From a virus (Duplodnaviria; Heunggongvirae; Uroviricota; Caudoviricetes): a stretch of 43,597 nt of DNA. The DNA is taken from the IMG/VR virus record IMGVR_UViG_2778261529_000002, positions 1-43,597 of that record; one strand, written 5' to 3'. Of the stretch, positions 40,672 through 42,285 are shown piece after piece; positions within the stretch are counted from its first letter, which is position 1; every line of letters begins with the position of its first letter. Both the position numbers and the translations under genes were made by a program. The notes beneath the pieces were generated by a model that worked only from the letters and a program-made list of their open reading frames with translations, was not told the DNA's origin and searched no databases.

Positions 40672-41226
40672 ATGCTTATTGGCTATGTACGTGTGTCAAC
40701 AAATGACCAGAACACAGATCTACAGCGTAATGCGCTGAACTGTGCAGGATGCGAGCTGATTTTTGAAGACAAGATAAGCGGTACAAAGTCCGAAAGGCCG
40801 GGACTGAAAAAACTGCTCAGGACATTATCGGAAGGTGACACTCTGGTTGTCTGGAAGCTGGACAGGTTAGGGCGCAGTATGCGGCATCTTGTTACGCTGA
40901 TAGAAGAGTTGCGCCAGCGTGGCGTGAATTTCCGAAGCCTGACTGACAGTATTGATACCAGTACCCCAATGGGCCGTTTCTTTTTTCATGTCATGGGTGC
41001 CCTGGCTGAAATGGAACGAGAACTGATTGTTGAACGAACAAAAGCTGGACTGGAAGCTGCTCGCGCACAGGGACGAATTGGTGGACGTCGTCCCAAACTT
41101 ACACCAGAACAATGGGCGCAGGCCGGGCGATTAATTGCATCAGGCGTTCCTCGCCAGAAGGTGGCGATCATCTATGATGTTGGTATATCGACACTGTATA
41201 AGAAGTTTCCGGTCGGAGATAAATGA
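40672..41226 (+). CDS. pin: Serine recombinase DNA invertase (Pin/Gin/Hin family)
   Basis: 184 aa from MLIGYVRVSTNDQ, near-identical to e14 Pin as I recall it; ORF-track start 40636 is upstream of the real ATG. Confidence 0.9.
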   Translation: MLIGYVRVSTNDQNTDLQRNALNCAGCELIFEDKISGTKSERPGLKKLLRTLSEGDTLVVWKLDRLGRSMRHLVTLIEELRQRGVNFRSLTDSIDTSTPMGRFFFHVMGALAEMERELIVERTKAGLEAARAQGRIGGRRPKLTPEQWAQAGRLIASGVPRQKVAIIYDVGISTLYKKFPVGDK

Positions 41227-41262
41227 AACCGTAGCACGTCGTATGCAAGAAGATCGTGCTGC
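41225..41262. repeat. Direct repeat R1 with internal hairpin (AGCACG..CGTGCT), between pin and the GIY-YIG gene
   Basis: About 36 bp, about 90 percent identical to R2 at 42247-42285. Confidence 0.5.
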
Positions 41263-41286
41263 GGTTTATGCTTATCACTTAAAGAC

Positions 41287-42060
41287 TCAAAAATTAGGTG
41301 AGTAACGGACCGGGGACATAGCTCCTTTTTTTCTTAATTCATCTGGTATTTTTTTTCCAAGATAAAGATTTGCTATTTCAGGTGGGGCTTCTCGACCTTC
41401 AAAACCATAGCGAGAACTTTGTGTTGCCTCAAAGTCCGGATCCTCGTCCCAGTATTTCATCGTAGGGAAATTTTCACGTGTTGATTTGAGCCATTTATCA
41501 GCAATGAAAACCCCTCGAACGATCCCCCTTACAGTAGCAAGAATGACTTCTGCTTGGCTGGCGCGAGAGACATTAATGCGCCAGCTAAATCGAACCGCAT
41601 CATAAAGCTCTGAATCCTTTGCACTTCTGTTAACGGAAATCATTAATGCTTTATGATGAAATGTTATGGTTTCGGGTTGATATGTTGCTATCAACTCTTT
41701 GACATGCGCGGCGCCGAATTCATTGCTGCCAGCACCATTCATGATATTCGTTAACCCAGGGTAGGCATCAATAAGTGCTGCTTCAACTTCGTACGCCGTC
41801 TTTTCATCAGTCATTCCATGTCGATGGATGACATGGATAACTTCAAGTCCCGCTAATCTTATTTCTCTGATTTGCTTTAGCTTGTTGCTCAGTAACTCGT
41901 CATCATCAGCCGCTGCCACTTCACCGCGCATATGGGCAAATACGCGGTTACCTTTGCCTTTCCCTACATAGAAGGTGCTTCCGTCCCTAGGATCAATCAA
42001 TCGGTATACATACCAGCCAAGGTGTTCAATTACTCCAGAAGGAAACTCAGTAATATCCAT
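41287..42060 (-). CDS. GIY-YIG nuclease-domain protein with uncharacterised C-terminal domain (257 aa from first ATG)
   Basis: Motif [20 protein letters not shown] near the N-terminus; AT-rich; ORF-track start 42111 is TTG. Confidence 0.7.
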
Positions 42061-42092
42061 TTTGCAATATCTGTGAATTATTTGTGAGACGT

Positions 42093-42121
42093 ATATTAAT
42101 GAACATTGCAAGGGCTCACAA
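42093..42121 (-). promoter_or_regulatory. Putative sigma70 promoter for the GIY-YIG gene (-35 TTGTGA, 17-bp spacer, -10 TAATAT)
   Basis: Hexamers read on the minus strand about 30-60 nt upstream of ATG 42060. Confidence 0.4.
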
Positions 42122-42246
42122 CTAGTAGTGTTGAGAAAGCCATCGGGAAAATGAGGCTAACCCTTTGAATTTACATAGCGCAAAAAGATACCTTTCCTCA
42201 TAATGTGAGCTAATTTTATGTTTCGTTTGATGATCGGGTCGGTCTC

Positions 42247-42285
42247 GAAACCCGTAGCCACGTCGTATGCAAGAACGTGCTACGA
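42247..42285. repeat. Direct repeat R2 (copy of R1), between the GIY-YIG gene and the integrase 3-prime end
   Basis: GAAACCCGTAGCCACGTCGTATGCAAGAA..CGTGCT; aligns with R1 with two 1-nt indels. Confidence 0.5.

Follow-up and report, generated by a model that had tools for sequence, protein, structure and literature searches.

Layout of the pin-int junction

The window, as we call the whole stretch of DNA that was analysed, comprises the 43,597 nucleotides (nt) of the IMG/VR virus record IMGVR_UViG_2778261529_000002 (Caudoviricetes), and our subject is a nuclease gene near its right-hand end together with the two hairpin-forming direct repeats that bracket it. The gene, PD-T4-3 (also named CMoRE), lies on the minus strand at 41287..42060, starts with ATG and encodes 257 amino acids (aa) beginning MDITEF; a 274-aa, TTG-started entry in the list of open reading frames (ORFs) is the same frame extended upstream. 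Convergent with it on the left is pin, a serine DNA invertase of 184 aa (40672..41226, plus strand, ATG at 40672) that is matched by Pfam Resolvase (E 1.4e-52) and HTH_7 (E 4.5e-13) and is annotated as pinE in homologous loci, and on its right is int, an IntS-type tyrosine integrase of 385 aa (42440..43597, minus strand; Pfam Phage_integrase, Phage_int_M and Arm-DNA-bind_3). A preliminary description of the window had reported a 257-aa minus-strand GIY-YIG gene between pin and int, and it was right in this.

The left hairpin copy, H1-L (41226..41267), fills the space between the convergent stops of pin (41226) and PD-T4-3 (41287). The right copy, H1-R (42252..42285), comes after int and before the PD-T4-3 promoter on the minus strand, and is helix 1 of a two-helix element; the second helix, H2 (42288..42346, minus strand), pairs GGCTGG at 42288-42293 with CCAGCC at 42327-42332 across a 33-nt conserved loop, and its tail ends GATTTTAC. 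The inner right edge of the cassette (42237..42252) is a fragment with the very sequence of the tRNA-Ser anticodon arm (GGTCGGTCTCGAAACC), as recognised from the flank of the O157:H7 allele discussed below. The gene had also been called AT-rich, which is true only to a modest degree, the GC content being 0.41-0.46 over the cassette and 0.46-0.53 in pin and int.

Identity of the nuclease

The window protein matches the PADLOC model for PD-T4-3 (PDLC04031) with E 2.2e-140, residues 1-256 covering positions 1-255 of the 256 in the model, and it matches PDB entry 9U75 over its full length (E 1e-172; 254/257 residues identical). The protein of this entry is WP_000355475.1 from Escherichia coli O157:H7, and our comparison locus L002 has it annotated. 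The protein also matches phrog_5356 and, among Pfam families, the LEM-3-like GIY-YIG family (PF22945; 54 bits, cutoff 27), and it misses the threshold of the GIY-YIG family PF01541 (13.7 bits against a gathering cutoff of 22.6); NCBIfam gave no match. PD-T4-3 was discovered by functional selection in E. coli, the original isolate being ECOR68 (Vassallo et al., 2022, PMC9519451), and was renamed CMoRE following biochemistry and crystallography (PDB 9U75 and 9U8D; Liu et al., 2026, PMC12923530). Its defence in a native host has been demonstrated in strain NILS69.

According to the CMoRE report, the crystal structure assigns the nuclease domain to the GIY-YIG superfamily, the tyrosines of the N-terminal GIYxY-YIG nuclease being Y17, Y19 and Y31 (PMC12923530). 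In the window protein the motif GWYVYRL supplies G15-W-Y17-V-Y19, and F30-Y31-V-G33 and R39 are likewise present. The catalytic arginine and glutamate of the motif appear to be kept, an assignment that rests on near-identity to 9U75. The tetramer-interface and sensor residues R80, V92, L96 and Y127 are all retained, and the acidic loop reads D52-D53-D54-E55, where 9U75 has DDDD; this change is one of three substitutions relative to 9U75, none of which falls in the N-terminal motifs. Residues 111-257 align with 9U75 ungapped and with two substitutions, there are no extra domains, and the length of 257 aa is that of type I. By these comparisons, the window gene is a PD-T4-3/CMoRE type I gene, that is, a single-gene type IV restriction system that has already been characterised.

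The C-terminal domain, which the preliminary description left unassigned, does have an assignment: CMoRE is a tetramer whose C-terminal domain has a new fold and acts as a sensor of 5-hydroxymethylcytosine (5hmC) and glucosyl-5-hydroxymethylcytosine (5ghmC), contacting 5hmC through Y127 (PMC12923530). The O157:H7 enzyme cuts only DNA carrying these bases, and ordinary DNA is spared unless the acidic loop is mutated; this loop is autoinhibitory, and a four-alanine mutant both cuts ordinary DNA and is toxic (PMC12923530). With its native promoter, the O157:H7 gene lowered the plating of T2, T4 and T6 about 10^5-fold, by direct defence and not by abortive infection (PMC12923530). Of the earlier suggestion of a restriction-like or abortive-infection nuclease, the first half is thus upheld and the second is contradicted. 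The window allele would be expected to cleave 5hmC/5ghmC DNA and to protect against T-even phages in the same way as its 99%-identical O157:H7 homologue. Of 5426 complete E. coli genomes, 838 (~15%) carry the gene with an identity of at least 95%.

The direct repeats and the cassette ends

The two repeats had been put at about 90% identity, which is a fair figure: between 41225-41262 and 42247-42285 there are 34 identical positions, two 1-nt indels and one 3-nt indel, and both copies contain an exact 17-nt core, CACGTCGTATGCAAGAA, at 41235-41251 and 42259-42275. The core occurs twice in the window, where 100 shuffles lead one to expect 0.00 occurrences, and no further copy is found in the window at up to two mismatches. 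The proposal that each repeat can form a hairpin is borne out by both copies on either strand, the left copy folding at -22.5 kcal/mol on the plus strand (z -4.9) and -16.3 kcal/mol on the minus strand (z -4.5), and the right copy at -19.1 kcal/mol (z -3.5) and -22.4 kcal/mol (z -2.9), respectively. The 5' half of H1-L is the resident phage allele, and its 3' half and flank (GATCGTGCTGCGGTTTATGC) accompany PD-T4-3 wherever the cassette is found; this flank type occurs with PD-T4-3 at loci L002-L005 and at 17 more IMG/VR loci. An inverted repeat of 26 nt (22/26 positions) that links the pin leader (40642-40667) with the interior of PD-T4-3 (41521-41546) was discarded as chance, as 4 of 60 shuffles gave an equal match.

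The sigma-70 promoter proposed for PD-T4-3 at 42093-42121 on the minus strand, TTGTGA-N17-TAATAT, is by inspection a plausible though unproven candidate; it agrees with the consensus at 8/12 positions and was not listed by our scan, the threshold of which was 9/12. Alignment A2 shows no difference from the O157:H7 allele between 42040, inside the gene, and 42250, thus as far as some 190 bp upstream of the start codon, and it was with its native promoter that the O157:H7 allele is reported to have given defence (PMC12923530). At the other end of the gene, H1-L is followed on the PD-T4-3 strand by UUUCAUUUAU, and a U-rich tract follows the fold on each strand; H1-L is likely to be a bidirectional terminator between pin and PD-T4-3. 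Both the promoter and the terminator activity of the cassette are predictions from its sequence.

Empty sites and other contexts of the cassette

The preliminary description saw in the segment between the repeats a swappable cassette, and proposed aligning this junction across related prophages. In such alignments homology ends at the hairpin, and empty alleles with a single hybrid hairpin occur. Strain PEC122 (L001) has the same argW prophage in a form shorter by 1023 bp, in which pin, a single H1, H2 and intS are present; the left half of its hairpin is as in the left copy of the window, and the right half and flank are as in the right copy. The IMG/VR contig L218 is a second empty allele, and its single H1 is exactly the left half of the window's left copy joined to the right half of the right copy. 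PD-T4-3 is a gain-or-loss cassette, and L001 and L218 are the collinear relatives that lack it at the same position, as expected of a moron. Measured between the end of pin and H2, IMG/VR loci have spacings of about 50 bp (twelve loci, empty), about 1050 bp (nine loci, PD-T4-3) and about 4200 bp (two loci, PD-T4-3 plus a restriction-modification (RM) system); these distances come from a loosened census based on loop pattern and folding energy, which admits false positives such as window positions 5896 and 39421 and was put to no other use.

The cassette is also found in at least four other surroundings, its breakpoints falling in the hairpin or at its edge. In O157:H7 (L002), it follows pin at the edge of a decayed prophage, and homology to the window stops at ...GGTCGGTCTCGAAAACC; the flank beyond this point (L002 5636-5700) is the 3' part of a tRNA-Ser gene, ending CCGCCA. 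We take this gene to be serU, and the fragment is, to judge from its sequence, what remains of an attachment site used by a serU-integrating prophage. The right junction as it stands in the window (serU fragment, hairpin, H2) is present in 185 E. coli genomes. Strain WAT carries the cassette directly after a tail-fibre assembly gene, without pin, and homology to the window begins at exactly 41226; its hairpin is a chimera, the left arm and loop belonging to the allele linked to tail-fibre assembly and the right flank to the PD-T4-3 type. In EH08-18-36 and WAT, a half hairpin upstream of PD-T4-3 is the site at which a Dcm methyltransferase gene and a type II restriction endonuclease gene have been inserted (L004 1870-4546 and L005 5239-7915), each insertion starting inside the half hairpin, and in EH08-18-36 the insertion is followed by a full hairpin and then an integrase gene. 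One prophage slot thereby holds, next to each other, a type IV enzyme and a type II RM system (L004, L005). In T16R the cassette lies beside IS26. Finally, L078 (1-5400) holds an array in the order pin, H1, PD-T4-3, H1-H2, a CapH/CapP-like pair, H1-H2 and an HNH-like gene; the pair consists of an XRE-HTH gene and an M78 peptidase gene and resembles CapH/CapP, and the last gene encodes 262 aa with a weak HNH_5 match.

The H1-H2 element

Taken together, H1-R and H2 form a structured element that spans about 100 nt (window 42248-42346) and falls in the 3' part of int's transcript. We assembled two IMG/VR sets of such elements, one ascertained by the H1 loop and the other by the H2 loop, and in each set the stems vary and the loop that was not used as the search key is still conserved; a first scan of viral contigs with a 14-nt loop pattern had returned many chance matches in coding regions, which were filtered by context. 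Across 93 distinct variants 91.7% of cells are paired and 15 of 20 pairs have changed on both sides, and these counts are of variants related by descent and hence not of independent events. None of 500 shuffles scored as high, and slid controls pair at 26-59%. Among the cells that are not Watson-Crick, G.U read on the window minus strand accounts for 146 and A.C, which would be the wobbles of a plus-strand RNA, for 52, again in related sequences. Because G.U exceeds A.C on one strand, the pattern favours selection on an RNA in the sense of int, the dinI-like genes and PD-T4-3.

The element is widespread: 5193 of 5426 complete E. coli genomes carry it, with up to nine copies in each and 9603 places in total, and so do 196 phage records, including lambda and HK97; Stx phages have it too, as do Citrobacter, Salmonella arizonae, Kluyvera, Raoultella, Trabulsiella and Pantoea. 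The copy in lambda (J02459, 24162-24256) is unannotated and lies between two leftward ORFs of the b region, which we take to be ea31 and ea47. That in HK97 (NC_002167, 20943-21040) abuts the annotated sib site (21042-21091) and is preceded by a relic of the 3' end of pin. Relics of the last ~20-50 nt of pin were seen immediately before H1 in phages without the invertase, namely HK97 (L244 ~1925-1945) and L218 (~230-270). The sequences suggest that pin-H1-H2 is an old arrangement in lambdoid phages. A fossil copy was also noticed in the core genome of E. coli, between ykgJ and ecpE (L009 ~4990-5260; K-12 W3110 303448-303534), with compensatory changes in its stem (GCGGTAC...GTACCGC) and, after it, what appears to be the decayed end of a dinI-like gene; judged in this way, it looks like the relic of a prophage end that became fixed in the core genome.

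With respect to neighbouring genes, a same-sense ORF ends within 200 nt upstream of the element in 73 of 101 variants of the IMG/VR set, 57 of these being DinI-like genes (stop codon 0-30 nt before the element) and 7 IntS-like integrase genes. On the int-sense strand, H1 is succeeded by a T-run in 40 of 100 variants; lambda and one large clade lack it. As the T-run is so often missing, termination alone does not explain the conservation of H1-H2.

H1-H2 is not an Rfam family, and a scan of 40500-43000 in E-value mode returned only a sub-threshold CssrB hairpin and noise. The match to CssrB, a Shigella small RNA, covers window 41204-41263 at 24.5 bits (gathering threshold 76) and is confined to the 3' hairpin, with 129 model positions missing; CssrB may simply end at an H1-type prophage hairpin. 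A search of the literature with the 18-nt H2-loop string and with CssrB found no description of the element, the older lambda literature lying outside that search. The prophage small RNAs svsR (3' end of cI) and PasA-D (near Q, RusA and the lysis genes) were set aside, being located elsewhere, and coding through the hairpin was likewise rejected: an ORF can be read in some copies, and 1-nt indels in the stem shift the frame between variants. One tentative reading, which we put somewhat below an even chance, is that H1-H2 is an undescribed and strongly constrained structured RNA, which may serve as a module for the 3'-end processing, stability or regulation of leftward prophage transcripts and also as a linker at which prophages swap defence cargo, among it PD-T4-3, RM systems and genes linked to CapH/CapP.

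Model for movement of the cassette and its alternatives

We suggest, and consider it likely, that the window carries a known defence moron which is swapped between prophages by recombination at a shared hairpin element and which restricts T-even DNA. The direct observations behind this proposal are the identity of the gene, its intact key residues, the empty alleles, the alternative contexts, the chimeric hairpin and the covariation of the hairpin; we infer that the recombination is driven by homology rather than by a dedicated recombinase. The C-terminal domain would recognise 5hmC and 5ghmC in T-even DNA and the GIYxY-YIG domain would cut it, the acidic lid loop DDDE (residues 52-55) would spare unmodified host DNA, and the lysogen, and hence the prophage, would be protected from T-even phages by the cutting of their hypermodified DNA. 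As a moron, the gene would have its own promoter and a terminator hairpin, H1-L, within a cargo slot between Pin and IntS of an argW prophage. Its transcript, starting in its own upstream region, probably ends at H1-L, which would also close the pin transcript, and H1-R and H2 would close that of int.

In this proposal the direct repeats would be two alleles of H1, one being the single resident H1 (in the H1-H2 downstream of int) and the other having arrived with the cassette. The duplicated hairpin would then be the footprint of recombination between a resident pin-H1-H2-int and a donor H1-PD-T4-3, with crossovers at the short identical core of H1 and in neighbouring H2 and pin sequences. The left joint would lie within pin or H1. 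The right joint is probably older, having perhaps arisen between the serU attachment-site relic and the 5' flank of H1 at a GAAA(A)CCG microhomology before spreading with H1-H2 to several contexts. An exchange between the two H1 copies would yield an empty allele like that of L218. The empty alleles and other contexts bear out the swappable cassette of the preliminary description, and its view of the repeats as cassette boundaries needs amending, because the element stands at thousands of prophage sites, most of them without cassette variation, and the hairpin is therefore not a cassette-specific boundary.

Several points weigh against this proposal. The pin-PD-T4-3-intS arrangement is found, at 80% coverage or more, in none of the complete E. 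coli genomes of the collection, and the order of events is therefore reconstructed and not observed. The identical core is short (17-27 bp), so that RecA-type exchange would be inefficient and a catalysed event is conceivable. The right junction lies in serU anticodon-loop sequence, where a tRNA-targeting integrase would cut, and an aberrant integrase event fits it as well as microhomology does. Lastly, the promoter candidate agrees at only 8/12 positions, and the terminator scan passed over H1, the loop of which exceeds 8 nt.

One alternative is that the hairpins are attC-like sites of dedicated site-specific recombination, at which a circular cassette with one hairpin would enter by a crossover in the loop, catalysed by Pin, the integrase or another enzyme. 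The filled site is indeed laid out like attL and attR, its outer halves making up the empty allele and its inner halves following the cassette; the RM insertion in EH08 and WAT breaks within the loop, between ...CGTAGTATGC and GTTAA; the stems vary around a conserved loop core, CGTATGCAAGA; and the element separates cargo genes in arrays. However, the crossover positions are not fixed, falling in the right arm (WAT), the loop (EH08) or the 5' flank (the right junction of the window), the duplicated unit in L078 includes H2, as unequal homologous exchange predicts, and no recombinase is confined to the cassette or co-varies with it. For these reasons such a mechanism is less likely, and we regard it as improbable. 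WAT, moreover, carries the cassette without pin, the IMG/VR copies of an element with 9603 E. coli occurrences sit mostly just past dinI-like stops without cassette polymorphism, and the excess of G.U over A.C (146 vs 52) speaks for selection on RNA and not on a DNA site.

In a second alternative, the repeats would be ordinary terminators, each of the leftward genes int and PD-T4-3 happening to end in a similar hairpin, and would have no part in cassette movement. The position of H1 at the 3' end of a same-sense gene in 73/101 variants, most often dinI-like, agrees with this, as do the T-run in 40/100 variants and the similarity to the CssrB 3' hairpin (24.5 bits, below 76). Yet the breakpoints of at least four independent rearrangements fall at the hairpin, and two alleles are combined in the WAT hairpin; the T-run is lacking in lambda and a large clade, and a conserved loop of 11-13 nt is unlike a plain intrinsic terminator. 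We think it unlikely that the repeats are terminators and nothing more. A free-standing homing endonuclease that cuts the empty pin-int junction would account for the precise presence/absence polymorphism, GIY-YIG enzymes include homing endonucleases, and there is a weak match to phrog_314 'homing endonuclease' (E 0.0022), but we reject this reading as very improbable on the published substrate specificity, the 99%-identical enzyme being reported to act on hmC/ghmC DNA alone, with ordinary DNA cut only when the acidic loop is mutated (PMC12923530), and on the several unrelated junctions at which the cassette is found, the C-terminal domain moreover being a sensor of base modification and not a sequence-specific DNA-binding module.

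For the gene itself the gain is small: the structure and mechanism of this defence enzyme appeared in print in 2026, and the window adds a further prophage copy; the gene, its mechanism and the carriage of defence genes in prophage cargo slots are already known. What may be new is the H1-H2 element, which is conserved even in lambda and appears unannotated, and its role as a joint for cargo exchange. The locus offers a clean natural example of the gain and loss of a defence gene, with exact empty and filled alleles and with joints in a shared hairpin core of 17-27 bp. Should H1-H2 prove functional, it would add something new to the biology of lambdoid phages and would serve in practice as a marker by which the cargo and defence slots of prophages can be located.

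The surrounding prophage

The integrase of the window is of the IntS type, the homologous prophage of PEC122 has intS beside a tRNA-Arg gene and yfdC, with the tRNA-Arg ~160 bp past the integrase start codon, and the e14 junction is unrelated past the pin stop; for these reasons membership in e14 was rejected, and we assign the prophage to the argW/IntS elements on the strength of these homologies. At the other end of the window, a 415-aa ORF for an MFS permease (1-1248) is presumably the host sucrose permease gene cscB, and not icd. The distal prophage end and its att copy are expected in the ~800 bp after this ORF (1250-2000), in which no tRNA was found. Two phage-borne tRNA genes, Asn-GTT and Thr-TGT, were noticed 5 nt apart at 16424-16579.

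The phage encodes a Mu-type baseplate J protein. Upstream of pin lies a Pin-type invertible tail-fibre segment of ~1.8 kb (38757..40610), which is context and outside the PD-T4-3 cassette. It is bounded by 19-nt inverted repeats (38757-38775 and 40592-40610) that are 95% complementary, one of them inside the tail-fibre gene at 38407-39111, and it holds two alternative sets of a tail-fibre C-terminus and an assembly gene (Pfam Gp53-like_C, two Caudo_TAP, and Collar).

Comparison with known systems

The closest relative, the O157:H7 CMoRE, shares with the window gene the GIYxY-YIG motif, the acidic loop, the tetramer-interface residues, Y127, the single-gene organisation and the 190 bp upstream; it differs in lying at the edge of a decayed prophage beside a serU remnant, the window gene being between pin and intS at argW. 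A parallel with e14 of K-12, where the HNH nuclease McrA was said to follow Pin, is correct for that strain, in which pinE is followed by mcrA, and it holds as a functional analogy, since both nucleases are type IV enzymes. McrA is encoded on the same strand as pin, whereas the GIY-YIG gene of the window is on the opposite strand; e14 integrates at icd by IntE, window homology to it ends at the pin stop codon, and its junction has no H1 hairpin.

P2 and P4 prophages reportedly contain defence hotspots, as described by Rousset in 2022. In such hotspots, fixed slots of temperate phages hold alternative defence genes (Vassallo et al., 2022, PMC9519451). The window-type slot is similar in that it can hold PD-T4-3, an RM system, a CapH/CapP-like pair or an HNH-like gene, and differs in phage type and in its position, from tail fibre or pin to int or dinI; no description of a slot at this position was found in the hotspot literature examined. 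Like the sib-tI region of lambda and HK97, H1-H2 is structured and lies downstream of int, in the int sense, and in HK97 the two abut, but its sequence is unlike sib and the lambda copy is ~3 kb away.

Integron attC cassettes resemble the present one in that cargo is bounded by imperfect-palindrome hairpins, arrays are possible and filled sites have hybrid hairpins. Here, in contrast, an IntI-type integrase and attI are both absent, the hairpin measures 34-42 nt, crossovers are variable and the covariation is of the RNA type; no integron-like dedicated integrase was found in or beside the cassette, nor any fixed crossover point among the junctions. The morons of the lambdoid phages HK97 and HK022 are promoter-gene-terminator units between conserved genes. 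Like these, the PD-T4-3 cassette is present or absent in collinear relatives, is oriented opposite to the late operon, has a lower GC content than its neighbours and has a function that benefits the host; unlike them, it is flanked by hairpins that are two alleles of a widespread element, which also supplies the joints for recombination.

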